Assembly (NCBI RefSeq): GCF_003991155.1
Contig: NZ_CP031293.1
Strand: one strand, 5' to 3'
DNA: 64,000 nt
DNA from: Escherichia coli
Lineage (GTDB): Bacteria > Pseudomonadota > Gammaproteobacteria > Enterobacterales > Enterobacteriaceae
In this document: positions 3,578-64,000 of the stretch, one piece after another
How the letters are laid out: each line of letters begins with the position of its first letter
How positions within the stretch are numbered: the first letter of the stretch is position 1
Translations under genes and position numbers: made by a program
Notes under the pieces: model-generated
The model's input: the letters and a program-made list of their open reading frames with translations, nothing else
The model's database searches: none
Told to the model about the DNA's origin: nothing

Positions 3578-3677
3578 AAATTGGTGGTCATTCTGGTGGT
3601 CTTGACAATCTCGATTTTTTGTTTTAGCTTACCAATCAGCCAGTTAATGGCTACGGCGATCCCAGTCAGAGGAGCCC
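3578..3677 (+). repeat. att-like repeat copy A (about 70 bp of island arm plus the last ~17 nt of tRNA-Asn)
   Basis: ttggtggtcattctggtggtcttgacaatctcgattttttgttttagcttaccaatcagccagttaatggctacggcgatcccagtcagaggagcc; the 3' end matches the tRNA-Asn acceptor/T-arm end (cagtcagaggagcc). Confidence 0.75.
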
Positions 3678-6008: not shown

Positions 6009-6084
6009 TCCTCTGTAGTTCAGTCGGTAGAACGGCGGACTGTTAATCCGTATGTCACTGGTTCGAGTCCAGTCAGAGGAGCCA
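6009..6084 (+). tRNA. tRNA-Asn (GTT anticodon)
   Basis: tcctctgtagttcagtcggtagaacggcggactgttaatccgtatgtcactggttcgagtccagtcagaggagcca; 76 nt, anticodon loop ctGTTaa. By recalled K-12 layout this is asnT-like by its downstream context and asnV-like by its upstream context. Confidence 0.95.
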
Positions 6085-13992: not shown

Positions 13993-15244
<1,252 letters not shown>

Positions 15245-15252
15245 CCACTACA

Positions 15253-16717: not shown

Positions 16718-16841
16718 CTAATACCAAAATAACTCTATGATTAAAAAGGCTGATATATATGCTGGAAGTAGACAGACTACCGGAAACAGTACGACGGTGA
16801 CAGGGTGAACCAAAGGGTTAGGCGCATTTTAAAAAGGTGGT

Positions 16842-16928
16842 CATTCTGGTGGTCTTGACAAACTCGATTTTTTGTTTTAGCTTATCAATCAGCCTGTTAA
16901 AGGCTAAGGCGATCCCAGTCAGAGGAGC
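16842..16928 (+). repeat. att-like repeat copy B (island right end next to yeeJ)
   Basis: aaaaaggtggtcattctggtggtcttgacaaactcgattttttgttttagcttatcaatcagcctgttaaaggctaaggcgatcccagtcagaggagc; sits where asnT lies in recalled K-12 order (about 250 bp upstream of yeeJ). Confidence 0.75.
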
Positions 16929-30064: not shown

Positions 30065-30781
30065 GTGGGACGTAAATGGGCCAATATTGTTGCTAAAAAA
30101 ACGGCTAAAGACGGTGCAACGTCTAAAATTTATGCAAAATTCGGTGTAGAAATCTATGCTGCTGCTAAACAAGGTGAACCCGATCCAGAATTAAACACAT
30201 CTTTAAAATTCGTTATTGAACGAGCAAAGCAGGCACAAGTTCCAAAGCATGTTATTGATAAAGCAATTGATAAAGCCAAAGGCGGCGGAGATGAAACGTT
30301 CGTGCAGGGCCGTTATGAAGGCTTTGGTCCTAATGGCTCAATGATTATCGCCGAGACCTTGACTTCAAATGTTAACCGTACGATTGCTAACGTTCGCACA
30401 ATTTTCAATAAAAAAGGCGGCAATATCGGAGCGGCAGGTTCTGTCAGCTATATGTTTGACAATACGGGTGTGATTGTATTTAAAGGAACAGACCCTGACC
30501 ATATTTTTGAAATTTTACTTGAAGCTGAAGTTGATGTTCGTGATGTGACTGAAGAAGAAGGTAATATTGTTATTTATACTGAACCTACTGACCTTCATAA
30601 AGGAATCGCGGCTCTAAAAGCAGCTGGAATCACTGAGTTCTCAACAACAGAATTAGAAATGATTGCTCAATCTGAAGTTGAGCTTTCCCCAGAAGATTTA
30701 GAAATCTTTGAAGGGCTTGTTGATGCCCTTGAAGATGACGACGATGTTCAAAAAGTTTATCATAACGTCGCAAATCTCTAA
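30065..30781 (+). CDS. yeeN: YebC/PmpR-family transcriptional regulator
   Basis: 238-aa ORF with GTG start: [27 protein letters not shown]... Confidence 0.85.
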
Positions 30782-31238
30782 TTATATTTTAAAGAAATCT
30801 GTCTTTATGGCAGATTTCTTTAATCTCATATAATTCTTATAAAGAATATAATATCCAGCTCGTCATATTGATTATAAAACCCACGCTCCCAGAGAAATAA
30901 TATTTATTAAAATTCCAGGCCTTCTTTTTCTGATTACAGAAGGCAAAGTGGCAATTACGTATAGTTTCCCGATAAAGACGTGACAGCAACATCCCGCATA
31001 AGGCATTTTTCTCTTTATCTTTGTACGGTGCTTCATGGAACAGAGTTTTTGACCTTGCGAATCGTGATGTCTGTTGGGGGGCAATTTGCTCACTGAAGCG
31101 TGAGACTCGATTAAGCACACGAAACACAGAAATCAAAAAACCCGGTCACTTTTTTACAAGGTAACCGGGTAAAAATGATTTTATTTTTTAACTGTCTTGA
31201 GACTCATAGAGATGTCTCAAAACTAAAATTTGGCTCCT

Positions 31239-31338
31239 CTGACTGGGATCGCCGTAGCCTTTAACAGGCTGATTGATAAGCTAAAACAAAAAATCGAGTT
31301 TGTCAAGACCACCAGACTGACCACCATTTTTATTAGCG
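31239..31338 (-). repeat. att-like repeat copy C (tRNA-Asn 3' fragment plus island arm) bounding the defence-like cassette
   Basis: Minus-strand reading: tggtggtcagtctggtggtcttgacaaactcgattttttgttttagcttatcaatcagcctgttaaaggctacggcgatcccagtcagaggagccaaa. The adjacent 31196-31238 matches the hairpin downstream of the tRNA at 6085-6120. Confidence 0.75.
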
Positions 31339-31496: not shown

Positions 31497-32414
31497 ATGA
31501 AGTCCAGATTTGGACCAAATGGGGTGCATTTATTCGACCGAAATACAGGTCTGAACGTCCTCCTGGAGGAGTTACGCCCAAAGGAATCTGTTTGGTCCAT
31601 TTCTCCACGCCAGGTCTCGATTGCACTTACCAATCTTTGTGACCTTCGCTGCGCACATTGTTTTGCGCCCAAGCATAAGGCATTGCTACATACTGACCAA
31701 GTGCTTACTTGGTTAAAAGAACTGGATACTGAAGGATGCCTCGGTATCGGATTTGGTGGTGGAGAACCAACACTGCATCCTGATTTCGTCGAAATATGTA
31801 AACGGGCTGCTGGGGAAACTCATCTTGCAGTCACATTTACGACTCATGGTCACCGTCTGACCCAGCCATTGGTTAAAAAACTCAAAGGCTCGATCCACTT
31901 TGCGCGCATTAGCGTTGACGGGATAGGTCATACCTACGAAGAACAACGTGGAAGGCAGTTTTCAAGTTTACTCAGAGGCATTGAGTCGATCGCGAAATTG
32001 TCGTCTTTTGGGATCAATGTCGTGATAAACGAGCGTACGATTTTTGAGCTTGACGCAGTGGCTGAGCTGGCGCAACAGTTTGGTGCTAGTGAATTGCTGT
32101 TGTTGCCTCAGCAAGCAACTAATGCAGTCGCAAGTATGGACGAATTGGTCGGCCGAGAGCTTCAAAACTGGGTCTCTAGCTATAGAGGAAAGGTTCGACT
32201 TGCAGTAAGTGAGGTGGGAGCGTCAGGGCTCCCCATATGTGACCCTCTTCCTAATGAAACAGGCCTTCAAGCCTACGCGCATATAGACGCTTCCGGGATA
32301 TTGCGCACGAGTTCTTATTCAACCACAGGTATGGATATTGAAGAAACTGGTGTTATGTCCGCGCTTAAACGGCTTAGAAATACCTTAGAGATTAAACAAG
32401 GGACACAATCATGA
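31497..32414 (+). CDS. Radical SAM enzyme (single 4Fe-4S cluster type, no SPASM extension)
   Basis: 305-aa ORF; CDLRCAHCF (CxxxCxxC, nt 31635-31658), GFGGGEPTLHP (GGEP SAM-binding motif), ARISVDG; stop overlaps the next start (ATGA at 32411-32414). Confidence 0.8.
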   Translation: MKSRFGPNGVHLFDRNTGLNVLLEELRPKESVWSISPRQVSIALTNLCDLRCAHCFAPKHKALLHTDQVLTWLKELDTEGCLGIGFGGGEPTLHPDFVEICKRAAGETHLAVTFTTHGHRLTQPLVKKLKGSIHFARISVDGIGHTYEEQRGRQFSSLLRGIESIAKLSSFGINVVINERTIFELDAVAELAQQFGASELLLLPQQATNAVASMDELVGRELQNWVSSYRGKVRLAVSEVGASGLPICDPLPNETGLQAYAHIDASGILRTSSYSTTGMDIEETGVMSALKRLRNTLEIKQGTQS

Positions 32415-32818
32415 AAATTTGGAACGGATACGGATCTGAGCATTCGATGAACTTAGTTCTCATCGGAAAATTCAAGCAAGAGCAAGATGCAGTGAAGGTC
32501 GAGAAGGATATTAAAACGCTCAGTACTCAGGCTGAGAAAGATGAATGTTACTCGATCCCTTTTGATGAGCCAGAGAATCAACGGTTTTCATATGAAATGC
32601 TCTCATTACTATGCAGCCTAAAACTCCACACTTTAGGACCAACCGATCTTGGTCAATTGGTGTCAGATCATCATCTAGATCGCGAAGGCGATAGAATAAC
32701 AATAACTACTGATGAGGCAGAGGTATCCGCGTTCGTGAAGCTGTTTGTCGAGGCTGGAGCAAAGGTCGAGATTTTCTCAGCGCATGACTATCCGTCCGAT
32801 TCCAGCGATGCCAGTTGA
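32411..32818 (+). CDS. Hypothetical 135-aa protein, translationally coupled between the radical SAM and NTPase genes
   Basis: Start overlaps the radical SAM stop; its own stop TGA overlaps the TTG at 32815. No recognisable motifs. Confidence 0.6.
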   Translation: MKIWNGYGSEHSMNLVLIGKFKQEQDAVKVEKDIKTLSTQAEKDECYSIPFDEPENQRFSYEMLSLLCSLKLHTLGPTDLGQLVSDHHLDREGDRITITTDEAEVSAFVKLFVEAGAKVEIFSAHDYPSDSSDAS

Positions 32819-35800
32819 CAGAGGATGCATTGATGCCTGAAGTAAATTGGAAAGTATTCAACGAACTGCCCGGTGCAGCAGATGTGAACTTCGAAAACCT
32901 TTGCCGCGCTCTGGTACGCCGACACTATGGTCGTTTCGGTCGCTTTAAGCAACTCGCAAATCAGCCTGGGGTGGAGTTTCACCTCGAGCTGACGGAGCCT
33001 TGTGATCTCGGTGCGCCACCAGGTTGGATTGGTTGGCAATGCAAGTGGTATGAACTGGTGAATGGACAAGATTTGGGAGCCTCCCGCCGCAACAAGATCA
33101 TCGAAGGTATCGAAAAGACGCGTAAGCATGTCCCTGGAGTGACCAATTGGAAGCTTTGGACTCATCACACGTTAACAAAAGGTGATCAAGAGTGGTTTTT
33201 CGCGCTAGAGCAAGACCGCTTCCCAGAATTGAAGTTAGAACTGCTCACAGCTACGGATATCGAAGATCTTTTGGTCGGACCGGGAGCGCTTTTACGAGAA
33301 ACCTACTTTGGTGAACTGGTTCTAACTCCAGAGCTAATTGCTGAGCAGTATAAGCTTGCAGTGGCCCCATTTAAGAACCGCTACCAGCCAGATGTTCATG
33401 TAGCGGTGGGGGCTGAGGAGAATATATTCAGGCATCTGTGCAGCCAAAACGCATGGGAATCTCTGGAAGAACTCTCAAACGCTTTAAAAAAGAATCATAC
33501 GAGCATTGCTTCGGTTACTGAGCAACTCAAAACTGAGCTCAGGGCTGAAGTTGAATTACTCCTGGCCCGGGTTATTGGGTTGACTGAGTTTATTGATGGC
33601 TTACACGCGGCGCTCGGCAAAGGTGACTTTAACTCTGTATATCAAGCGTTGGTTTCAAATCCGCGTCAGCCGGTACGTTATGACAGGCTACTTTCGAAAT
33701 TGCGTGGAGCGCGCTTTGACGGGGCTCCGTTAACCGCTAATTTGGTTGCAGATATCCACGCGGTTTCGTCAGTTCTCCGCAGTCTGGAGCAATCGATTAG
33801 TGCTCGGGCGGTTGCTGTTCTTGCGGCGGCGGGGGAAGGTAAGTCTGAACTTGCAGTCAAGGTAACACAGCCAGAAGGGGCGTTCCTAGGGGGAATCCTC
33901 CTATTAGGCAAGAATCTTCATTCAGGCCAGGGGCTTGATGATCTCGTATCTGCCTTCAAGATTTCTGGGAGACCAGCAGAAAGTTTTGACCGCCTGATTG
34001 AGGCCGTAGATGCGGCAGGCCAGCGTGCAGGTAAACGCATACCTATTGTTATTGACGGTCTGAATGAGGCGGAAGATCCGAGAAATTGGAAGGATGAATT
34101 ATCCCGAGTGGATGAGCTTCTAAAGAATTTTCCTTATGTCTTGTTAGTTGTCACTCTTCGCAATGAATTCGCCCAGATGTGTCTGCCTGAGGGGTTTCCC
34201 CAAGTTGAACATAATGGGTTTCAGGAAGATCCGAAGACAGCATTTGACAAGTATTTTGAGTACTACAAGATCGATGCTACTGATGCGGATCTACCAGTCG
34301 AACTCTTGCAGCACCCCTTAACACTGAGAATTTTTTGCGAAGTAGCAAATTCTCCTCGTCAGCATATTGTCGGAGTGGAAGCATTGCCCCGTTCGCTTGC
34401 AAGCCTGTTCGAAGCTCACTTTAACAAGGTTGCAGCACGAGTCGCTGAGCTTTCACCGACGATGCATCGCATTTATCAAGATGACGTTCAGGATGCACTA
34501 CTAACGATCGCGGGTCTTCTTTGGGATAACAATGCGAGAAGTGTGGATTTTCAGGCTACACGGATGGCAGTTCGGGATATGGGGTGGGACGACAGTATTA
34601 TTCGTGCACTGGAGTCTGAAGGCATTCTCGTTCGGACTATTTCTCCAGAAGGTAGGCAAGGAGTTGCGTTTGCATACGACCTAATGGCCGGACATATGAT
34701 GGCGCGCAACCTGCTTATGAAGCCTGAACTGGTGCAATGGCTACAAAGCGATGAAGGGAACGCAAAATTTAAATCTCATGGACCTGATTCGCATACCTTC
34801 GCTTATGACGTATTACGGGCTCTGGTTGATCTGTATCCGCAACACTCTGGTAGGCGGCAGCTTTGGCAAGACTTGTCGGATGATATACTCGTTATGAACG
34901 CTCTGCTATTGACGACGCAATCGGATCCAAGATATATCGGGCGGGCTACTGTTGAACGATTTGCTCAAGCTATGCAGGAGTCGAAGCGGTTTGCACAACT
35001 TGCCTTCGAGAGACTACGGAGCACTAGGGCTGCGCTGGCACATCCGTTTGATATGAGCTTTTTGCATGATGTGCTAATGGCTATGTCCAACACTCAGCGC
35101 GATCTTTTTTGGTCAGAGTGGATTCGTCAGAAATCTGAACAAGTTAAAGACGACTTAAAATTCTTGTCGACGAGATGGAAATCGGGTCATCTGGATGAGC
35201 GTGAACTTCGAAGAGTTCGCTGGGTAATGTGGACACTGACGACGACATCCAGAGCTTTGCGGGATATGGCTACCAAAGCCCTGTATGAATTTGCCATCAG
35301 GCGGCCAGAAGAGTTTTTCCGGTTAGCGACGGAGACAATTGTAGTTTCAGACCCATATGTCCCCGAGCGAGTGTTCGCCGCAGCCTACGGTGCAGTCCTG
35401 ACCACTTGGTCGGATATCGATGCGGTAGAGTTACATGATGCGTTGCCACGGTTCGCTCGTGAGATTTACCAAACCATGTTTGCACCTGGCGCTACAGCCC
35501 CTACCTGGCATGCATTACATCAGCAGTACTGTTTGGGAATCATTGCCATTGCGAGGATGGTCGATCCAAATTGTTTTTCAGAGGACGAAGCTGTTTATCT
35601 TCTTCCGCCATTTAGCCATCTGCCTAACGTATTTGAAAGCATTCAACCGTACGATCCAGAGATGATTGGGCGAGCGGAGAGCGCAGCGATTCAAATGGAC
35701 TTTGGTAACTATACGATTGGTGGACTTATTCCAGACAGAGCGAACTACGATGACAGTAATCCGGAGTACCAACAGGTGTTGCAGGCCATTGTTTCTCGAA

Positions 35801-36891
35801 TGCTGATGCTTGGTTATGACCCTGAGCAGTTTGAAGCTGTTGATCGGCAAATGTACTCCGGTTCTCGTATGGGAGATGACAAGCACAAAATCGATCGATA
35901 TGGCAAAAAGTACGGCTGGATAGCTTACTTCGAGATGTGGGGGATACGATACGCGCAGGGCCTCCTTTCCGAAGAACGCAGTGCTCGCCCATCAGATGCT
36001 GATATCGATCCAACGTTTCCGCAAAAAGTAGAGAGTATTAGTTTGTCACTCCCAGTCTTATTTAACGATCCGTCTGTGGATGATGGTGACTGGATCGTGG
36101 GAGGCCCGCTACCTGACTACCGTAGCATCCTTGAGATTACGGAGGTTGATGGTCTGACGGGGCCATGGATCCTACTTGACGGTTTTGTTGAGCAAAATGC
36201 TACCTCGGATGACCGACAGATTTTCACTTTCCTGCGAGGAGTATTCGTAGATAGCCAAGAAGTTGACAATCTATGTAGGTTGTTCATTGATCTTGAATAT
36301 CCTGGCAATAGCGCCATCCCTGATGCTCCTGGCTACTATTACACCTATGCGGGTGAGATGCCTTTCCCGACTATTCCGGGGCTGCTAGTCGCTAATGAAC
36401 AAGAGGATGATAGCGATGAAAATTTGGTGTTCGCAGAAAGATGGTCAGGCAATGGCGTTGCGGTAGATATCACAGTGCAGGACTACAACTGGGAGAGCTA
36501 CCATAGCGTGGAGAACCAAAGCAGCGGTGCGAGCCTGCCCTCAAAGCAACTTTGTGAGGCTTTGAATCTCAGATACTGTGCAAACAAATGGGATTTGCAT
36601 GATGCTGCAGGTGTAGCGTCACTTTACCGCAAAATTGACGAAAATGGTTCGGACGTCAGTGGCTCTGTCAGCTATCTACGTCGTGATCTACTTGACCGCT
36701 ATTTGATGCAATCCGGTAAGGTATTGGTATGGCTTATGTGGGGAGAGCGTGGTTTTCATTACCGGTCCAACAAGACACGCAATTTGCACAGGTATTACGT
36801 GAATCACCAACATATTCACAAGCGTATTCATATCCATCAGATAGCTTCGAGTACTAGTAACCCAAATATTGCGGATGGAGTCGCTATATGA
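32815..36891 (+). CDS. NACHT-like STAND NTPase with an N-terminal Mrr-like nuclease-fold domain and a long C-terminal region (NLR/Avs-like)
   Basis: 1358-aa ORF (TTG at 32815 or ATG at 32833). N-terminus FENLCRALVRRHYG...EPCDLGAPPGWIGWQCKWY resembles an Mrr-cat type D...QxK nuclease. Walker A VLAAAGEGKSE (nt 33823-33849, aa ~340); Walker B IPIVIDGLNEAED (aa ~410) then LLVVTLR. About 850 aa of C-terminus without enzymatic motifs. Confidence 0.8.
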   Translation: MTEDALMPEVNWKVFNELPGAADVNFENLCRALVRRHYGRFGRFKQLANQPGVEFHLELTEPCDLGAPPGWIGWQCKWYELVNGQDLGASRRNKIIEGIEKTRKHVPGVTNWKLWTHHTLTKGDQEWFFALEQDRFPELKLELLTATDIEDLLVGPGALLRETYFGELVLTPELIAEQYKLAVAPFKNRYQPDVHVAVGAEENIFRHLCSQNAWESLEELSNALKKNHTSIASVTEQLKTELRAEVELLLARVIGLTEFIDGLHAALGKGDFNSVYQALVSNPRQPVRYDRLLSKLRGARFDGAPLTANLVADIHAVSSVLRSLEQSISARAVAVLAAAGEGKSELAVKVTQPEGAFLGGILLLGKNLHSGQGLDDLVSAFKISGRPAESFDRLIEAVDAAGQRAGKRIPIVIDGLNEAEDPRNWKDELSRVDELLKNFPYVLLVVTLRNEFAQMCLPEGFPQVEHNGFQEDPKTAFDKYFEYYKIDATDADLPVELLQHPLTLRIFCEVANSPRQHIVGVEALPRSLASLFEAHFNKVAARVAELSPTMHRIYQDDVQDALLTIAGLLWDNNARSVDFQATRMAVRDMGWDDSIIRALESEGILVRTISPEGRQGVAFAYDLMAGHMMARNLLMKPELVQWLQSDEGNAKFKSHGPDSHTFAYDVLRALVDLYPQHSGRRQLWQDLSDDILVMNALLLTTQSDPRYIGRATVERFAQAMQESKRFAQLAFERLRSTRAALAHPFDMSFLHDVLMAMSNTQRDLFWSEWIRQKSEQVKDDLKFLSTRWKSGHLDERELRRVRWVMWTLTTTSRALRDMATKALYEFAIRRPEEFFRLATETIVVSDPYVPERVFAAAYGAVLTTWSDIDAVELHDALPRFAREIYQTMFAPGATAPTWHALHQQYCLGIIAIARMVDPNCFSEDEAVYLLPPFSHLPNVFESIQPYDPEMIGRAESAAIQMDFGNYTIGGLIPDRANYDDSNPEYQQVLQAIVSRMLMLGYDPEQFEAVDRQMYSGSRMGDDKHKIDRYGKKYGWIAYFEMWGIRYAQGLLSEERSARPSDADIDPTFPQKVESISLSLPVLFNDPSVDDGDWIVGGPLPDYRSILEITEVDGLTGPWILLDGFVEQNATSDDRQIFTFLRGVFVDSQEVDNLCRLFIDLEYPGNSAIPDAPGYYYTYAGEMPFPTIPGLLVANEQEDDSDENLVFAERWSGNGVAVDITVQDYNWESYHSVENQSSGASLPSKQLCEALNLRYCANKWDLHDAAGVASLYRKIDENGSDVSGSVSYLRRDLLDRYLMQSGKVLVWLMWGERGFHYRSNKTRNLHRYYVNHQHIHKRIHIHQIASSTSNPNIADGVAI

Positions 36892-37052
36892 GTTACGACT
36901 TCAGAAATCTTTCATCCGCAAACTTTGAGGATCTTGTGCGGGATCTTATCGAAAAAGAAGAAGGGTTCGCTTCGAAGCATTCTCTGTGGGGGCTGATAAT
37001 GATATTGATGGCCGACACGCACATGCTGGAGGGAATGTCAGTTTATAGGTAA
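36888..37052 (+). pseudogene. Short ORF resembling an Mrr-like N-terminal fragment (possible remnant of a further gene)
   Basis: 54 codons overlapping the NTPase stop (ATGA): MSYDFRNLSSANFEDLVRDLIEKEEGFASKH...; the FEDLV..L motif echoes the N-terminus of the NTPase protein; followed by ~1 kb with no ORF. Confidence 0.3.
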
Positions 37053-38005
37053 AACCTTATGAAGGGGCGTCGTTTAGTATACTGATGGCTATTATGAAGT
37101 GTGAGTGGTTGTCTAAAGATAAGCTAGCCCTCACACGCTGTATCAAGCGACCTCTTGTTAGCTTACTCCAGCTAGCAAGAGTAAACTTTCCCCACTCATA
37201 GGGCTATGTTTGAAGTCCGAGTCGGAAATTGGGGGGCAGAAGACATAAAAGGTCTCCTTAAGAAGTCTTCTTGTCTGTACAAAAACTCTTATTTTGACAA
37301 AGAGCATTGTAGTTATTAACAGGCTGATTAATAAATTTAAAAATAAGTCGTCAGGAACACCAGATTAGCTACCCAAATTCTCATGCCGTGGAAGCGGAAG
37401 AAAAATACTCCCCTGAATATCTTCATATCGGATATACATAATAAGCTTGAGGTTGTATATTTGAAGAATTGAGTAGCCAGAGCCTTGTTGACATAAAGCG
37501 ACACGAACAACATGTTACTTAAAATATCACGAGTATATATTCAGACTTGTTTATGTTGCGACATGGATTCTACAGGCAGCTGGCTGAAACAGTGAGTCAG
37601 AAAAATTTACAGGAGCGCCATAGTCATTAATGGATATCCGTAATATGCTGATGCAAAAGGGTAAGGAGTTTGCCGGTAATCTGCGGTGTTAGACGACAAT
37701 TACAAAACGACCTTAGGCGTCAATTACCGCTGAAAAAAGTGACAGATCACTTTCTATAAAATGCTGCCGTATGACCGACAGATTTATTCCGCTTTATAGC
37801 CATGACTGTTCGGTGCTCACTTCGCTGCGCTCCGCCTCAGTCCTGCCTAAAAAGCGTTGCAGGTTAGTTTGTATCGGCCTAATGAAAGGCTGTTTTAGCG
37901 AAGCGTAAATGTGACATCTTATCTGGTCTAATCTCTTTGCGATAATTGACGCAAAAGCATGGGCTGTAATTGTCACGCAATACTGCGGCAAGTCTCATGA
38001 TGATG

Positions 38006-38100
38006 CCTCTGACAGGGATCTCCGTAGCCATTAACTGGTCGATTGGTAAGCTAAAACAAAAAAATTGAATTTGTCAAGACAGCCATAATGACTACCATTT
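38006..38100 (-). repeat. att-like repeat copy D (degenerate), internal boundary of the composite island
   Basis: Minus-strand reading: tggtagtcattatggctgtcttgacaaattcaatttttttgttttagcttaccaatcgaccagttaatggctacggagatccctgtcagagg; the tRNA-derived end is truncated and diverged. Confidence 0.65.
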
Positions 38101-38264
38101 TCGTCTCTGCTTTTCCATCCTGAAATTAATGGCTATCATATTCGCAATAGACAACATCATCTTACTTGCACTCAACTATAACTAATGCTGAGTGCAAGAA
38201 ACGGGGATTATATCCCCTATCAAGGACCTGTTGAAATATTAGTCTGGAATTTCGAGGCTGTAAT

Positions 38265-38789
38265 TTAAATTGCTCCATTTGCCTTAGCATCAAGAATGAA
38301 TTTTTCATACTCGCGTTCTGCAACAACAACAGGGACTGTTTTGCGATTATATAATTGCATTAATAACAATGTACGATGCCTTCCATCAGAAACACCAAAT
38401 TCACTGTTAGATGCCTCTGGATATTCAACATACCCTTTTGATATATATTTTTTGATTTTATGCCATCTACGCGGATCAATGCAGAATGCTCCATCTCCTA
38501 ATTTTTTAAGAAAGGCTAGCCCATCGACATATACAATCCTGGTAGGACAATGCCGATAGCGTACAGGAAGGGTAAAGATAATATTTTCAAAAACAGGGAA
38601 AGTAAGACCTGAATCATCTTTAGGTATTGACTCAAAGGAATCAAAAGGATATTTTGTCATGTAATCATTTAGTTTTTCAATATCCATATTGGAAAACCAC
38701 GATACTTCCGGGAGAAATTTTTTATCTCTTTCTCTAATTTCTTTGATCGAATCTCCAAATATATCATCTAACCTCCACCCCTCTTTCAT
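38265..38789 (-). CDS. Hypothetical protein with a DGxHR motif (ParB/Srx-like fold suspected)
   Basis: 174-aa AT-rich ORF; ...EFGVSDGRHRTLLLMQL... resembles the DG(Q/H)HR core of ParB-like nuclease-domain proteins; last gene of the orphan Rhs array. Confidence 0.4.
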   Translation of the reverse strand: MKEGWRLDDIFGDSIKEIRERDKKFLPEVSWFSNMDIEKLNDYMTKYPFDSFESIPKDDSGLTFPVFENIIFTLPVRYRHCPTRIVYVDGLAFLKKLGDGAFCIDPRRWHKIKKYISKGYVEYPEASNSEFGVSDGRHRTLLLMQLYNRKTVPVVVAEREYEKFILDAKANGAI

Positions 38790-38833
38790 TTATGCTCCTA
38801 AAATAATGTGATATTAAAAATTCTGTTAATAAG

Positions 38834-39349
38834 TCAAATTTTATGAATACTAATAAGGGGTTTGCACCACTCAACCGAGAGAATATCTTCCATTTTATAA
38901 AAAACGCCATAATCACTTTGATTATAATGCTCAATTTTATCAGCCATTTGTAATCTAATTTTGTCTTTGTAAATTCTACTTCGGATCAAACTGGCGAAAT
39001 TATATATATCAACCCTCAGATTGATAATATTATTTCTATCTGGGCGTCTTTCATGTAACATATCACGAAAAGAAACAAGTAACGTAATTAATTTTTTAGC
39101 CTCATTATTTTTAATATATCCTTTTTTAAAGATGCATAATATTAATTTTGAAATTAAGCTGATTTTTATTTGTAAATTATAGATAGCATTATCGTTTGTC
39201 AGGCAGGTTATGACTTCAATTACTTCACGTGAGCGAATATAATTGTCCAGTGCTTCCCATTCATCCATTCCTCGATGCATTGAAAGTTCCAATTGCCTTA
39301 AAAAAGCATATAACCCCAATAAGAAGTCGCTATTGCAGTATATTTTCAT
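38834..39349 (-). CDS. Putative immunity protein for Rhs fragment B
   Basis: 171-aa AT-rich ORF overlapping by 4 nt the stop of the Rhs C-terminal fragment. Confidence 0.5.
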   Translation of the reverse strand: MKIYCNSDFLLGLYAFLRQLELSMHRGMDEWEALDNYIRSREVIEVITCLTNDNAIYNLQIKISLISKLILCIFKKGYIKNNEAKKLITLLVSFRDMLHERRPDRNNIINLRVDIYNFASLIRSRIYKDKIRLQMADKIEHYNQSDYGVFYKMEDILSVEWCKPLISIHKI

Positions 39350-40835
39350 GAATCACATCCTTTAATAAAACTCATTATTCGTGACCAAAAAGAGTCTTTT
39401 TTGTATATAGGGTTTTTATCGTTTAATGGTAAAGGATCGTCTGTTGGTATAACGGCTGTATTTCTTGGCCCAACATTTGTTTTAGTAAGTGAATCTTTGG
39501 AAGCATCAAACTCTACATAAGAACCATTCTTCCATGCCCCTGTTTCTGCACCTGCCGTTTTAGGATCTCCAAATGGCTCCACCTCAACGTGTACACCAAC
39601 AGGATTGCCTCTGGCAGGGTTGATAGACCCATCCTTGCTAATTCCATCAATACCCTCTGTTGAAGTATGATGTCTAACTCTAACAGTATCGTCACCAGTT
39701 AACCCTAACGGATCAATAATTTTTAGCGGATTAAATACATATCCATACAGGCAATCCCCACCTCTCAGCCCCATCGGATCAGCACACAGATACTGCCCCG
39801 TATCGCAATCATAATACCTGAATCGGTTATAGTACAGGCCTGACTCAACATCCTCGTACTGCCCCGGAAAACGTAACCGGCATGTGGGCGCATCTTCTTT
39901 ACTGATGCCTTCCTCACGCCCCCAGAGCTGCTGCTTGCCTTTCCAGACTATCAGACCCTCTTCGGTCAGCAGTTCTTGTACGCGGCCAGTTGTGTCTGTT
40001 ACCGCATAATGCAGTTGCCCCTTTTCATAACGCGCAAACGGCGTGAAATCTCCCGGCTCGTATATCCAGCGGATGGCGTTTTCATCTTCCGGTTTGCCGT
40101 CAGCGCCAACCGGAATTTCCGCCGTCAACTGGTCGCCGTTCCAGTGAAAATCCATGCCGCGTTTGTCGCGGCTGGTACAGCGCTTGCTGATGCGCCTGCC
40201 GAACGGGTCATACTTATATTCCCAGCGTTCGCCCTCCGGTGTTTCCAGTCCGGTCAACTGGCTGCGTGCATCCCATTTATAACGCCATTCCAGTGGGCGA
40301 TAACCCCCTTTATCCACCAGTTTCTGTACCAGCCTGCCGTTAACATCATATTTCCAGGTGATGTTGTGCGCATTCACCACCCGGACAAATCTCCCGTCTT
40401 CCCCTTTTCCGGTGTCCGGGTTGATGCGATGCGTCGAGTGCCGCCAGCCTTCATGTTCCCGCGATACCACACGACCATGCTGCTGTTGCTGGTGCGTCTC
40501 GCTTTCCAGTACGTTATTCACCCTGATCTGGCGACGGGTAATGTTCAGGTTTTTATCGTAAGTGAACAGCTCCTCGCACAGCGGAAACTGGCTGGAATCA
40601 CCCGTCCAGGTGGCGTGGCTTATCTGGTCGTTTGCCGTGATGGTGTTGAACATGGAGCCGCGCAGCGAGTCGGCGATTGCGGTGAGGTTATACGCTTTGT
40701 CGTAGCTTCGCTGCGTCGGGAGGTTTCCATGCCGCACAGGTCGTGCTCAAATGTCAGCGGGGCATGGTCCGCTATTCGCCATGACGTAAGATGCCCCATC
40801 AGGTCGCGGGTGAAGCGTTCTGTGATACCCTCAGC
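39346..40835 (-). pseudogene. 5'-truncated Rhs fragment B (last ~350 aa of core plus a distinct C-terminal toxin tip)
   Basis: ORF 39346-40737: ...GLYYNRFRYYDCDTGQYLCADPMGLRGGDCLYGYVFNPLKIIDPLGL then a unique ~120-aa tip. DNA 39690-40835 is homologous to 10150-11340 of the main Rhs gene, with a frame disruption near 40700-40760. Confidence 0.8.
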
Positions 40836-40850
40836 CTGTAATTTTACAGG

Positions 40851-41303
40851 TTAAATGGGGAATTTTTCTTCAATGAGCTTCAAGCCAAGTAATGCCATAT
40901 CATGAATATCTTCATCATGCGATTGAGCCGAAATTTTCAACCCGTTTACCATTCTTTTATCTGGGAAAGACATTGTTAATATAGTACACCAAAGCCTAAC
41001 GCTTTTTATTGTGTTAGGATTTTCGAGTATGTTAACGATATTTATAACAACATCATTAAAATCACACTTATAGAGAAAATCCTCAACAATTTGATATACT
41101 CCAAGACCATCACCCTCACCAAAAGATCGCAAAAATAAAGGTATTGCATCTTTATCGGGATGGGAAAGAAAGTAAATTCGTACCTCATCGTATTTATCTA
41201 TAAGATCCTGAGTAATATCACAATCCGCGGGCATTGGTTGATGTAGTGACAGGAACTCTAATGCTTCTTTTTTATTCATATTCATATATTTAATGATTCC
41301 CAA
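40851..41303 (-). CDS. Putative immunity protein for Rhs fragment A
   Basis: 150-aa ORF immediately 3' of Rhs C-terminal fragment A. Confidence 0.5.
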   Translation of the reverse strand: MGIIKYMNMNKKEALEFLSLHQPMPADCDITQDLIDKYDEVRIYFLSHPDKDAIPLFLRSFGEGDGLGVYQIVEDFLYKCDFNDVVINIVNILENPNTIKSVRLWCTILTMSFPDKRMVNGLKISAQSHDEDIHDMALLGLKLIEEKFPI

Positions 41304-41763
41304 AGTTTTTTATTCTGTCTGGCTAACTCATATAGTTGTTCAGTGATGACCTTTTTATCATAGCCTGCATTTGTTAAGATTTTTCTTAGGTCATCTATAT
41401 CCCTTTTCAAATATTGTTCTTTTGTCAAACCTCGAACAAATGCTCGTCTGAATGTCCAGGTAAGAGCATGTAAATCTTTACGCAGATTTATCGTAATTCC
41501 CTTACATTTTGTTGTGGGGCTTACCGCATCCTGAATGGCATGATGAGGTGTATGAGTTGCATTAAGCCCTGTTTTACCATTCGCATAAATTGAAGAACCA
41601 TATGTACCAACGTATAAATCTTCTCCTGGACCAGCTAACAATCCCAAGGGATCAATCCATACCAGTGGATTTGGAGCGTAATTGTAAAGGTTTACTCCCC
41701 CCGACAGTCCAATCGGATCAGCACACAGATACTGTCCTGTCTCGCAATCATAGTACCGGAACC
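41282..41763 (-). pseudogene. Rhs C-terminal fragment A, truncated at its 5' end by IS3 copy 2
   Basis: ORF 41282-41812 runs into the IS; ...YRFRYYDCETGQYLCADPIGLSGGVNLYNYAPNPLVWIDPLGL then a unique ~130-aa tip. Confidence 0.8.
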
Positions 41764-43013
<1,250 letters not shown>

Positions 43014-43016
43014 CCA

Positions 43017-43385
43017 CTACAATGAGAGCATAAGTACACCTGCCGTCATTTCTGGTACGGCAACGCCCCCCGGTGTATAAGCTGTCCCGTTAATGATGAT
43101 GTCACAGGCGGGTTTCAGGGGGGCGAGGTCGCTTTCGCGCAGTACCGGAGATGTGTTCATCTCCCCGGCATACTCATCTTCCACACACAGCGGTAGCGGC
43201 GGGTTTTCGATAAGTTGGGTTTGCCACTGACCATTTTCGTCCCGTTGCAGCCGGAAGCCCGTTTTCATGGCGATAACGCGGTGACGTTCGCTATGTTTAT
43301 CATCCATCGCATATTCTATCGCTGAAAACGGCGTCAGGTTACGAAATTCCATATTGCACCCCGATCCCGTCTGTACCTGTCGCAA
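43017..43385 (-). CDS. Hypothetical 121-aa protein (possible effector-associated adaptor); last codons now replaced by IS sequence
   Basis: MEFRNLTPFSAIEYAMDDKHSERHRVIAMKTGFRLQRDENGQWQ...; the reading frame runs 5 nt into IS copy 2. Confidence 0.5.
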   Translation of the reverse strand: MRQVQTGSGCNMEFRNLTPFSAIEYAMDDKHSERHRVIAMKTGFRLQRDENGQWQTQLIENPPLPLCVEDEYAGEMNTSPVLRESDLAPLKPACDIIINGTAYTPGGVAVPEMTAGVLMLSL

Positions 43386-47841: not shown

Positions 47842-49104
47842 TCAGGCTGCCTTATGCTGCCGCGCATAAATATACGGCGCGACATACCCCTCGCGGCACA
47901 CATCCAGATAATCCGACCACCACTGCATCATGGCCTTTCTGGCCTCCAGATGCTCCGCTTTATGCACATAGGCCGCCCGCACGCTGTTACGCTCCTAGTG
48001 GCTCATTTGCCGTTCCACCGTATCGCGTGACCAGAGATCCGACTCTACCAGGGCGCTACAGGCCATTGCGCGAAGTCCATGTCCGCACACATCGGTTTTC
48101 GTATCATACCCCATCAGGCGCAGCGCCCGGTTGGTTGTGTTTTCGCTCATTGGCTTGTACGGGTTATGGTCGCCGGGGAATACCAGATCCAGATGGCCGG
48201 AAAGCTCCTGTATCTGTTTCAGAATGGCAATCGCCTGGCGGGAGAGTGGCACGATATGCGGACTACGCATTTTTGCGCCACGCCCCGAAAACCGTACTTT
48301 GTCGATGGCCTCGCGGGTGGCGGGGATGGTCCAGATTTTGTGCCTGAAATCAATCTCGCTCCAGCGGGCGAAACGCAGTTCGCTGGAACGGATGAACAGG
48401 TGCAGTGTCAGCACCACCGCCAGCCGGGTTAACTCCCGGCCCTGCCGGTAATCGCCAATACGATCGAGCAATTCAGGCAACCGCTCCAGCGGTAAAGCGG
48501 GATAGTGATTCTTGACGGGAGAGGCGACTACACCATCCAGATGCTGCGCCGGGTTGCTTTCGGTCAGTCCCTGCTGAACGGCATAGCGCATGATGTTGCT
48601 GAGTTGCTGCCGGGTTCGGGACGCGACTTCCAGAAAGCCCTTATCCTCAATAACCCGCAGCAAAGCCGTGAAATCCTGCGTTTTAAGCGCAGCAACGGGC
48701 AGATGACCAATCGCCGGGAAGATATGGTTTTCCATACTGGCGAGAATACGGGCGGCATAATCAGCCGACCATTTTTTGTTGGTTTTGTGCCAGGCCAGCG
48801 CCACCGCCTTAAAGCACTTTTCAGGGGAGCAGGCGGATTTCTCTGCCATACGCTGTTGCGCCGGGTTGATATTCTGCGCCAGTAGCTTGCGGATACCGTC
48901 GCGCTGTTGCCTGGCTTCTGCCAATGAGACAAGCGGATATGCGCCAAGACTGACTCTGGATTCTTTTCCGTTGAAACGATATTTGAGATACCAGATGCGT
49001 GAACCACCCGGATTGACGAGCAGATACAGACCCTGAGAGTCGGAGAGTTTTACCGGACGGGAAGAAGACTTTAACTTGCGGATTTTAGAATCGTTTAAAG
49101 ACAT
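47842..49104 (-). pseudogene. P4-type integrase with an in-frame amber codon before the catalytic tyrosine
   Basis: ORF 47995-49206 ends ...VERQMSH at TAG (47995-47997); the same frame continues ERNSVRAAYVHKAEHLEARKAMMQWWSDYLD... to 47842. The integrase at 6227-7513 has CAG (Q) at the equivalent codon. Adjacent to tRNA-Asn. Confidence 0.8.
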
Positions 49105-49265
49105 TTGGGGGTCACTCCAGAATCGAACCAAACTGACCCCAGATCTGACCACCAAATTATCCCGATGCGGAGAGAAAATTAGATACGCACCGGGAAGGAT
49201 TTTCACGCTAACTTACTGAATCGTAAACAAATAGAGACGCATAGATAAGCATGAAAACTTGAATT

Positions 49266-49341
49266 TGGCTCCTCTGACTGGACTCGAACCAGTGACATAC
49301 GGATTAACAGTCCGCCGTTCTACCGACTGAACTACAGAGGA
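49266..49341 (-). tRNA. asnW: tRNA-Asn (GTT)
   Basis: Reverse complement is identical to the tRNA-Asn at 6009-6084; lies between the integrase and yeeO. Gene symbol from recalled K-12 synteny. Confidence 0.9.
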
Positions 49342-62332: not shown

Positions 62333-62851
62333 ATGAATACCGATGCAATTGAGTCGATGGTCAGGGACGTGTTGAACCGCATGAACAGTTTACAGGGTGC
62401 AGCTCCTGTTTCTGCGGTCCCCAGCGCGTCAATACAGAGCGCCAAAGTGACGGATTACCCGCTGGCAAATAAACATCCGGAATGGGTTAAAACAGCAACC
62501 AATAAAACGCTCGACGATTTCACTCTGGAAAATGTGCTCAGCGATAACGTCACCGCCCAGGATATGCGCATTACCCCTGAAACATTGCGTATTCAGGCCG
62601 CGATTGCCAGAGATGCTGGTCGCGATCGCCTGGCGATGAATTTCGAACGCGCCGCTGAGCTTACCTCAGTACCGGATGATCGCATCCTCGAAATCTACAA
62701 TGCGTTACGCCCTTATCGTTCGACTAAGCAAGAACTTATTGCCATTGCTGACGATCTTGAACGGCGTTATCAGGCCAAAATTTGTGCTGCATTTGTCCGT
62801 GAAGCTGCGGAACTTTATGTCGAGCGCAAAAAACTGAAAGGCGACGATTAA
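62333..62851 (+). CDS. pduE: Propanediol dehydratase, small subunit
   Basis: 172-aa ORF following pduD. Confidence 0.85.
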   Translation: MNTDAIESMVRDVLNRMNSLQGAAPVSAVPSASIQSAKVTDYPLANKHPEWVKTATNKTLDDFTLENVLSDNVTAQDMRITPETLRIQAAIARDAGRDRLAMNFERAAELTSVPDDRILEIYNALRPYRSTKQELIAIADDLERRYQAKICAAFVREAAELYVERKKLKGDD

Positions 62852-62887
62852 GGACGAACTATGCGATATGACGATTAAGGACGAACT

Positions 62888-64000
62888 ATGCGATATATAG
62901 CAGGCATTGATATCGGCAACTCATCAACAGAGGTTGCGCTGGCAACGCTCAGTGCAACTGGAGAGTTGTCGTTCGTGAGTAGCGCCCTGGCGGAAACCAC
63001 CGGAATTAAAGGTACGTTGCGTAACGTCCATGGTATTCAGGAGGCGCTCGCACAGGCAACGAAAAAAGTCGGCATCAATGTTAGCGATATTTCGCTTATT
63101 CGTATCAACGAAGCAACTCCGGTCATTGGTGATGTGGCGATGGAAACCATCACTGAAACTATCATCACCGAATCAACCATGATCGGTCACAACCCGAAAA
63201 CGCCGGGCGGAGTGGGGCTGGGCGTAGGGCTCACCATCACTCCGCAAGAGTTATTAACATGCCCGGCGGACACACCCTACATTCTGGTGGTGTCATCGGC
63301 ATTTGATTTTGCCGATATCGCAACAATGATAAACGCCTCCGTACGCGCCGGATATCAGCTGACTGGCGTTATTCTGCAACGCGACGATGGCGTACTGGTC
63401 AATAACCGCCTGGAAATTCCTCTCCCTATTGTTGATGAAGTCCTCTACATCGATCGTATTCCGCTCGGCATGCTGGCTGCGATTGAAGTTGCCGTTCCCG
63501 GGAAAGTTATCGAAACCCTGTCTAACCCGTATGGGATTGCCACCGTTTTCGCCCTCAATGCTGAAGAGACTAAAAATATTGTTCCTGTCGCGCGGGCGCT
63601 AATCGGCAACCGTTCAGCAGTGGTAGTGAAAACGCCTTCTGGCGACGTTAAAGCCCGTTCGATACCCGCCGGAAATATCGAACTGCTTTCTGCCGGGCGC
63701 ACAACGCGGGTTGATGTAGCTGCTGGTGCCGATGCCATTATGAAAGCGGTCGGTGAGTGCCCAAAACTGGAAAACGTGACGGGAGAACCTGGCTCCAACA
63801 TCGGCGGAATGCTGGAACATGTTCGCCAGACCATGGCTGAACTGACCAACAAACCCAGCCACGAAATTTTTATTCAGGATTTGCTGGCGATAGATACCTC
63901 TGTCCCCGTCAACGTAACCGGTGGTCTGGCAGGTGAATTTTCACTGGAACAGGCTGTGGGTATTGCCTCTATGGTGAAATCCGACCGTCTGCAAATGGCG
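62888..64000 (+). CDS. pduG: Diol dehydratase reactivase, large subunit (3' partial, runs off the window)
   Basis: Frame open from ATG 62888 (MRYIAGIDIGNSSTEVALATL...) to the window end; position after pduE. Opposite-strand ORFs here are judged spurious. Confidence 0.75.
   Translation, partial: MRYIAGIDIGNSSTEVALATLSATGELSFVSSALAETTGIKGTLRNVHGIQEALAQATKKVGINVSDISLIRINEATPVIGDVAMETITETIITESTMIGHNPKTPGGVGLGVGLTITPQELLTCPADTPYILVVSSAFDFADIATMINASVRAGYQLTGVILQRDDGVLVNNRLEIPLPIVDEVLYIDRIPLGMLAAIEVAVPGKVIETLSNPYGIATVFALNAEETKNIVPVARALIGNRSAVVVKTPSGDVKARSIPAGNIELLSAGRTTRVDVAAGADAIMKAVGECPKLENVTGEPGSNIGGMLEHVRQTMAELTNKPSHEIFIQDLLAIDTSVPVNVTGGLAGEFSLEQAVGIASMVKSDRLQMA

Follow-up and report, generated by a model that had tools for sequence, protein, structure and literature searches.

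The window analysed here (i.e., the whole stretch of 64,000 nucleotides (nt) of Escherichia coli DNA) covers the asnT-yeeJ-yeeN-asnW region of the chromosome and carries an avs2 gene in an operon of the KpAvs2 type, which was described as Avap1 (radical SAM), Avap2 (DUF6375), and Avs2 (Bechon et al. 2024, Nat Commun, PMC11564622). Focus was placed on the DNA directly downstream of avs2, where an earlier note, made from the letters alone, had pointed to a 54-codon open reading frame (ORF) starting on the ATGA that ends the NTPase gene, and to ORF-free DNA stretching from there to an att-like repeat (repeat D). Both were readily found again, the mini-ORF at 36888-37052 and the ORF-free DNA behind it, in which the longest ORF on either strand (between 37053 and 38264) spans 65 codons. 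Repeat D proved real as well, as it is ~96 nt long (38006-38101) and has three further good copies. The features of this region are the following:

32833-36891, plus strand: avs2 (the NTPase gene of the earlier note), 1352 amino acids (aa) from the RefSeq start

36888-37052, plus strand: mini-ORF of 54 codons, with translation MSYDFRNLSSANFEDLVRDLIEKEEGFASKHSLWGLIMILMADTHMLEGMSVYR

36888-37266, plus strand: pseudogene stump of the PDC-S73 family, ~127 of 762 codons, about 17% of the gene

36965/36966: lesion, 1-nt deletion at codon 27 of the stump

37046-37048: lesion, TAG at codon 54, the invariant Q of a QxK motif

~37143: lesion, 1-nt deletion at codon 86

37159-37161: lesion, TAG at codon 92

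~37226: lesion, 1-nt deletion at codon 114

37291-37381, plus strand: repeat E, fifth copy of the island end repeat, degenerate in sequence, inside the coding-free DNA

37382-38005: non-coding DNA of ~620 nt, 38-44% G+C

37805-37855: motif shared with plasmids, GACTGTTCGGTGCTCACTnnGnTGCGCTCCGCCTCAGTCnTG, ~50 nt

38006-38101, plus strand: repeat D, well conserved, with a partial tRNA-Asn core CCTCTGACAGG only (11 nt with 1 mismatch)

The ATG of the mini-ORF (36888-36890) overlaps the TGA of avs2 (36889-36891), and a GGAG sequence is situated 7 nt upstream. Since 120 ORFs of at least 30 aa were found in 12 kb, a length of 54 codons is unremarkable by chance, so that the significance of the mini-ORF rests on homology. 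In this respect, the DNA from 36888 to 37266 showed 83-84% identity to the 5′ end of intact genes of 761-762 codons in four loci, and the alignment of all intact homologues to the window ended at 37259-37266. More specifically, E. coli MLI107 carries an avs2 gene that is 94% identical at the nt level and is followed, from the same ATGA, by an intact gene of 762 codons. In Klebsiella aerogenes, one metagenome contig, and Kosakonia radicincitans, the order is a radical SAM gene, a DUF6375 gene, a gene for 1352 aa, and a gene for 761-762 aa, with this fourth gene overlapping avs2 by 4 nt in each of the three loci. These intact versions, all of them starting from the same ATGA, bear out the suggestion of the earlier note that the mini-ORF marks the decayed start of a further gene.

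The intact MLI107 protein matched the PDC-S73 family of PADLOC end to end (E = 5e-146), and contains a Pfam Mrr_cat nuclease domain (PF04471, residues 6-72, E = 5.6e-4) followed by a Pfam nSTAND3 domain (PF20720, residues 172-327, E = 2e-48) with the Walker A motif GPPGVGKT. Comparison of the intact protein with solved structures returned only P-loop-level matches to Lon protease. The PDC-S73 family has >1,900 homologues of very uniform length, and no paper naming it was found in the literature, which makes even the intact family only a candidate defence gene. After correction of the frameshifts, the 127-residue stump matched positions 1-130 of the PDC-S73 profile (PDLC05079) with E = 5e-21, and tblastn of the full PDC-S73 protein on 37200-38300 detected neither nSTAND3 nor anything else past residue ~127. 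In contrast to the uninterrupted frame of ~760 codons by which PDC-S73 is recognised, the stump has three 1-nt deletions and two TAG codons and ends at codon ~127. What 36888-37266 contains is the 5′ remnant of a gene of the PDC-S73 family, which breaks off at codon ~127. In terms of known systems, the intact gene at this position matches the profile of PADLOC PDC-S73 (~760 aa) fully and the window stump matches its start, but the window copy is frameshifted and nonsense-mutated and has lost its NTPase and C-terminal parts.

The substitutions in the stump also point to decay. Relative to MLI107, the ratio of nonsynonymous to synonymous codon differences was 34:15 in the stump vs. 83:132 in avs2 (Fisher p = 1.1e-4). 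Moreover, in an alignment of 112 full-length homologues, in which 60 columns were ≥95% conserved, the stump departed from 18 of these 60 columns, including the invariant Q54 (now TAG), G22, G39, H57, and D114. Within the nuclease domain, the residues G39, D41, Q54-A-K56, and H57 are invariant in the 112 homologues, and the stump displays the changes Q54 to TAG, G39D, A55V, and H57P.

Given the lesions in the ancestral frame, the mini-ORF is composed of 26 genuine and 28 out-of-frame codons. Codons 1-26 constitute the genuine N-terminus of the PDC-S73-family gene, and codons 27-54 result from out-of-frame read-through past the 1-nt deletion at 36965/36966, with the PADLOC PDC-S73 match of the mini-ORF being limited to residues 1-27. 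This composition argues against the mini-ORF encoding a functional small protein or regulatory peptide that would be coupled to avs2 and would tune Avs2 expression or mimic the N-terminal helix of the Mrr domain. Such a peptide, which the earlier note had offered as its other option, would explain the intact state of the ATG, of its overlap with the avs2 stop, and of the GGAG sequence ahead of it. It would also agree with the exact 54-aa sequence being present on 393 contigs (with three single-residue variants, all inside one lineage) and carrying the label of a hypothetical protein in some GenBank entries, even if the mini-ORF is unannotated in RefSeq. However, the 393 contigs represent one near-identical island lineage, and homologues exist for residues 1-26 only. 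Other truncated copies of the gene, moreover, do not conserve the peptide and end differently, i.e., after 21 codons in Xenorhabdus and after 15 homologous codons in E. coli APEC20/16, and the intact operons of 23 other species work without such an ORF. Together with the relaxed substitutions in the stump, this renders a functional peptide very unlikely, and the 54-aa product, if made, would be inert because it is devoid of the nuclease catalytic residues and of the whole NTPase.

Beyond the stump, the coding-free DNA is structured by an island end repeat. E. coli asn-tRNA loci are classic genomic-island sites, and next to repeats D and E listed above, three further copies of this repeat are present in the window:

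3578-3672, minus strand: repeat A, ~2.3 kb upstream of asnT and not downstream of any tRNA gene in the window

16831-16925, minus strand: repeat B, a good copy

31236-31330, plus strand: repeat C, an asn-tRNA-island end repeat of ~96 nt

The 3′ end of tRNA-Asn, TGGCTCCTCTGACTGG, is copied at 31230-31246 ahead of repeat C, and copies A-C all begin in this way. The aligned copies A-D display the arrangement that defines such att or end repeats (i.e., the tRNA-Asn 3′ end and then a conserved island terminus of ~85 nt), and none of these four would be expected by chance. Repeat E lies within the interval described by the earlier note but was absent from its list of repeats. It starts 25 nt past the pseudogene breakpoint in the same orientation as repeats C and D, and carries the core TTAACAGGCTGATTAATAA at 37316-37334 with 0 mismatches. 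A search of the window with the 19-nt degenerate core returned 5 matches, corresponding to repeats A-E, and 0 matches in 100 shuffles. The repeats are the distal ends of asn-tRNA islands, with repeat C bounding the asnW island on its yeeN side, and repeat D opening the next module, which runs from putative Rhs orphan toxin/immunity genes and an IS3 element (insertion sequence, IS) onward to an integrase pseudogene and asnW. Sequences like copy B occur in ~300 other E. coli genomes, and were found upstream of yeeJ in NCTC9087, the one genome examined. The shared orientation of repeats C, E, and D is what would be expected for tandem accretion of islands at asnW. As in tRNA-associated tandem island arrays, the window repeats C, E, and D bound successive modules and the tRNA-proximal integrase is a pseudogene; unlike in such arrays, two of the three window modules are without any integrase trace and repeat E is heavily degenerate.

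The non-coding part between repeats E and D (37382-38005) was not found outside this island type. Of 5426 complete E. coli genomes, only 23 contain it, and it is also present on 2 metagenome contigs. Likewise, BLAST of 37267-38005 in the complete E. coli genomes returned the same 23 strains and elsewhere the D repeat only, and a metagenome scan yielded the two contigs, both of which carry the same island. No phage similarity was detected for 37267-38005, and no plus-strand terminators were found after avs2.

The earlier note had placed this stretch where the integrase of the cassette would be expected, and the stretch might accordingly be read as the decayed remains of an integrase gene, or of some other gene from the island that originally housed the cassette. 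That position is plausible, since an integrase and tRNA-Arg come after the four genes in Kosakonia, which means that an integrase may once have lain left of repeat D. Moreover, a decayed copy of the cassette in E. coli APEC20/16 has an IS remnant, an integrase, and a tRNA gene behind it, and repeat D occupies the place expected for the tRNA-proximal att site in an island of this kind. However, when five tyrosine integrases (two from the window and those of MLI107, APEC20/16, and Kosakonia) were used as tblastn queries against 36800-38300, no integrase remnant emerged in 37267-38005, the best matches having E = 0.26-9 over 7-39 residues. Later parts of PDC-S73 and the neighbours of the intact loci were also sought by tblastn in 36800-38300 and rejected, as nothing fell below E ~0.02-0.3. 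The open segments of at least 35 aa in all six frames gave no NCBIfam match and only one, chance-level PHROGs match (E = 0.32). In addition, the stretch opens with the island-end repeat E, which points to a different island module. A decayed integrase or other gene within 37267-38005 is therefore improbable.

Alternatively, the ~620 nt between repeats E and D could constitute a functional non-coding element, such as a small RNA, an integrase arm-binding region, or an IS110-type target. In favour of this, the motif at 37805-37855 recurs with ~80-84% identity in 42 Klebsiella and Salmonella plasmids, most of them conjugative, where it lies in unannotated DNA. BLAST of the stretch against plasmids matched a motif of ~75 nt only. 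This motif abuts IS110-family genes in two of the plasmids, being located directly behind a transposase fragment of this family in one (L007) and ~90 nt ahead of a pseudogene of the family in the other (L009), and may as such represent an IS110-type target or end sequence. An IS110 remnant beside the motif was searched for by tblastx, which matched the motif alone. Several promoter-like sites are present as well, but their number (8) compares with a shuffled expectation of 5.3 +/- 2.4. The Rfam search of 36500-38500 (E <= 1) gave two chance-level matches only (best E = 0.68, far below gathering), the fold energy of the motif was ordinary (z = -0.04 and -1.8), and the carriers display no sequence variation by which conservation could be tested. 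Altogether, a functional non-coding element in this stretch seems rather unlikely.

The explanation that best fits these data, to which we assign a probability of roughly 90%, is that the mini-ORF is the frameshifted 5′ part of a PDC-S73-family pseudogene and that the coding-free DNA is an island junction scar, with no working gene in either. In a subset of the Enterobacterales, the KpAvs2-type operon carries directly after avs2, with its ATG overlapping the stop codon, a gene of ~760 aa with a predicted Mrr PD-(D/E)xK nuclease, nSTAND3, and helical layout. In the window lineage, this fourth gene has acquired the three 1-nt deletions and two nonsense codons, and a deletion would have taken codons 128-762. 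The same or later deletions would also have removed the DNA up to the tRNA-proximal att site, probably including an integrase such as that of Kosakonia, so that the breakpoint would now be joined to the degenerate repeat E, followed by ~620 nt of orphan DNA and repeat D. The ORF-free stretch would in that case consist of the remainder of the stump (37053-37266) and then the scar (37267-38005), the latter marking where island modules lacking integrases were joined in tandem at asnW. As for the intact ancestor, analogy with Avs proteins alone would make it a STAND sensor with a nuclease that a phage protein switches on. The finding as a whole is one of ordinary gene decay, i.e., a pseudogene plus an island scar.

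Some observations weigh against this explanation. With 16-17% nt divergence next to an avs2 gene that is 94% identical, the stump has diverged more than simple neutral decay since the split of the avs2 genes would predict, and recombination with a more distant allele, as opposed to decay, may account for part of its divergence. Furthermore, some translation of the 54-aa product may persist, because the start codon, the Shine-Dalgarno sequence, and the stop/start overlap survive in the sequence. The tandem-accretion reading draws only on how repeats C, E, and D are oriented and where they lie, and no integrase remnant supports it. Finally, the region from 36700 to 38300 is 100% identical in the 23 of 5426 complete E. 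coli genomes (with partial matches in 2 further genomes), strains WW2 and CREC-544 being among the carriers, and these identical carriers consequently provide no independent evolutionary evidence.

The genes upstream of the stump were identified as follows:

31497-32414, plus strand: avap1, radical SAM gene, operon gene 1 (PADLOC pVip-like radical SAM, E = 5e-20)

32411-32818, plus strand: avap2, DUF6375 gene, operon gene 2 (RefSeq name, and PF19902 on homologues)

These are followed by avs2, of which the ORF opens at a TTG at 32815 (1358 codons vs. 1352 from the RefSeq start) and which is apparently intact. Its product combines an N-terminus resembling Mrr with a STAND NTPase and a long sensor at the C-terminus, and matches the PADLOC Avs2 profiles (E = 7.7e-116), with the N-terminus matching the Avs4 nuclease profile. 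Since its score for the NCBIfam Avs2 equivalog (276 bits) is below the curated cut-off of 1000, the window protein is a divergent Avs2 subtype, in line with the description in PMC11564622. The KpAvs2 operon was operationally defined by radical SAM and DUF6375 genes immediately upstream of an Avs2 homologue, and was shown to mediate abortive-infection phage defence that needs the Mrr-type nuclease and Avap2 (PMC11564622). The RefSeq names and coordinates, the PADLOC matches, and the presence of PF04055 and PF19902 on homologous genes place the window cassette within this definition. The three window genes are identical to the published operon in kind and order, with overlapping stops and starts, and lie directly upstream of the mini-ORF; the difference is that the published operon has three genes, while the parent of the stump is a fourth gene found in a subset of the Enterobacterales only. 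Phages restricted by KpAvs2 include SECphi18 and T2.

As a separate observation on avs2, the part encoding the C-terminal sensor (35470-36069) is a divergence hot spot relative to MLI107, with 84-89% nt identity vs. ~96% elsewhere. Nonsynonymous and synonymous codon differences stand at 34:35 in this part and at 83:132 across avs2, which hints that the recognition domain of Avs2 has undergone diversifying change.

The distribution of the fourth gene was traced in an Avap2-anchored scan with one genome per species, which yielded 26 loci from Proteobacteria, Firmicutes, Cyanobacteria, Actinobacteria, and other groups. All three operon genes were found wherever the retrieved contig covered them. 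The parent gene of the stump, on the other hand, was absent (tblastn, E <= 1e-5) from 23 of the 24 informative loci of other species, the exception being a stump in Xenorhabdus griffiniae VH1 (L010, 8004-8290) that follows avs2, has a TGA at codon 22, and retains homology to ~codon 83. In E. coli APEC20/16 (L003, 10178-10224), 46 nt of the fourth gene (15 homologous codons) are left before the IS remnant, and avs2 itself is also broken, being split into two ORFs. The fourth gene is thus inactivated in at least three separate lineages, i.e., those of the window, APEC20/16, and Xenorhabdus. The earlier note had reasoned that related cassettes ending at the same point with no additional gene would speak against a decayed gene; distant cassettes do end after avs2, but the closest relatives carry the intact fourth gene.

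More distant intact homologues of the fourth gene in E. coli (76-79% identity at the nt level) are located in other islands beside PDC-S06 ATPases. Because the loci of other species are without the gene and these distant homologues sit in other islands, the fourth gene, which is not a core or constant member of the KpAvs2 operon, is judged from its sequence distribution to be a separate candidate defence gene that was joined to avs2 in an enterobacterial sub-lineage. A stronger form of the association would be a four-gene KpAvs2 unit in the Enterobacterales, in which a second, coupled STAND nuclease cooperates with, backs up, or counterbalances Avs2 (in the manner of paired NLRs), and in which its inactivation in several lineages would reflect a recurrent cost or incompatibility instead of random decay. 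The closest relatives of the fourth gene indeed always come after avs2 with the 4-nt overlap, and decay has happened several times. Nevertheless, with distant homologues beside PDC-S06 and most Avs2 operons being without the gene, simple co-location within defence islands fits better, and a functional four-gene unit remains doubtful. With respect to the PDC-S06 neighbours, PDC-S73 homologues are paired with PDC-S06-family ATPases in E. coli at L005 6752-11286, L006 6752-11286, and L004 6013-11286, and in two integrative elements this pair again shows the 4-nt stop/start overlap. The PDC-S73 gene thereby repeatedly takes the distal place in a pair with a large ATPase gene that it overlaps.

The earlier note had further suggested that the decayed gene might be a paralogue of the NTPase gene, on account of an FE(N/D)L motif that is echoed at the two N-termini. 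The echo is present (NFENLCRALV vs. NFEDLVRDLI), but is not significant by BLASTP (E = 0.16-0.22). A true paralogue, i.e., a tandem duplicate of avs2, would agree with both proteins starting with an Mrr-type nuclease helix bearing FE(N/D)L, and with the N-terminus of Avs2 matching the Avs4 nuclease profile while the intact fourth protein matches Mrr_cat. However, full-length BLASTP of Avs2 vs. the intact fourth protein gave a best E of 0.16, upon which close paralogy was rejected. The NTPase modules, moreover, belong to different families (PADLOC Avs2 vs. Pfam nSTAND3 and PADLOC PDC-S73), and the PDC-S73 family also occurs away from Avs2, next to the PDC-S06 ATPases. A tandem duplication is therefore hardly credible, and what stands of the proposed relationship is a shared type of N-terminal nuclease domain, with the echo stemming from the first helix of an Mrr-type nuclease fold common to both proteins and not from close paralogy. 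Among known systems, a looser parallel may be drawn with Avs5, which consists of SIR2, nSTAND3, and repeats (bioRxiv 10.1101/2025.07.08.663546). The intact fourth protein shares with Avs5 the layout of effector, STAND, and helical parts and the nSTAND3 subtype of NTPase, but its effector is an Mrr-type nuclease instead of SIR2, and it gave no match to the PADLOC Avs5 profile at E <= 0.01.

The wider setting of the island is given by the following features of the window:

6009-6084: asnT, tRNA-Asn gene

between asnT and yeeN: yeeJ, yeeL, shiA, and amn

30065-30781: yeeN, followed by the inserted island and then asnW

49266-49341, minus strand: asnW, with yeeO and asnU beyond

Directly after repeat D, Rhs C-terminal fragments and small hypothetical genes occupy 38265-41812 on the minus strand, and are likely orphan toxin/immunity modules. 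The G+C content falls to 25-30% around 38800-39400, and a terminator-like hairpin is situated at 38217-38203. Two identical IS3-family copies lie in direct orientation 27.8 kb apart, one in the asnT island (13995-15252) and one in the asnW island (41764-43021). Both adjoin Rhs sequences and could serve as substrates in a deletion or inversion of the yeeJ-yeeN segment together with the Avs2 operon. The integrase gene adjacent to asnW (47842-49206, minus strand) is a pseudogene with an internal stop in RefSeq (strain WW2), for which reason the whole composite island is probably immobile. Further along, a 27-nt unit, GACGATTAAGGACGAACTATGCGATAT, is perfectly duplicated in tandem at 62843-62896, at the end of and just after the ORF at 62333-62851.

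For annotation, the mini-ORF should read as the 5′ fragment of a PDC-S73-family pseudogene, and it carries little weight for biology. Similarly, the ORF-free stretch comprises the remainder of the pseudogene and then a junction of island remnants at asnW, and is no place for seeking a new gene. Finally, in several enterobacterial genera the KpAvs2 operon carries a fourth gene, encoding a predicted second nuclease-STAND protein, which has been lost or inactivated in several lineages.

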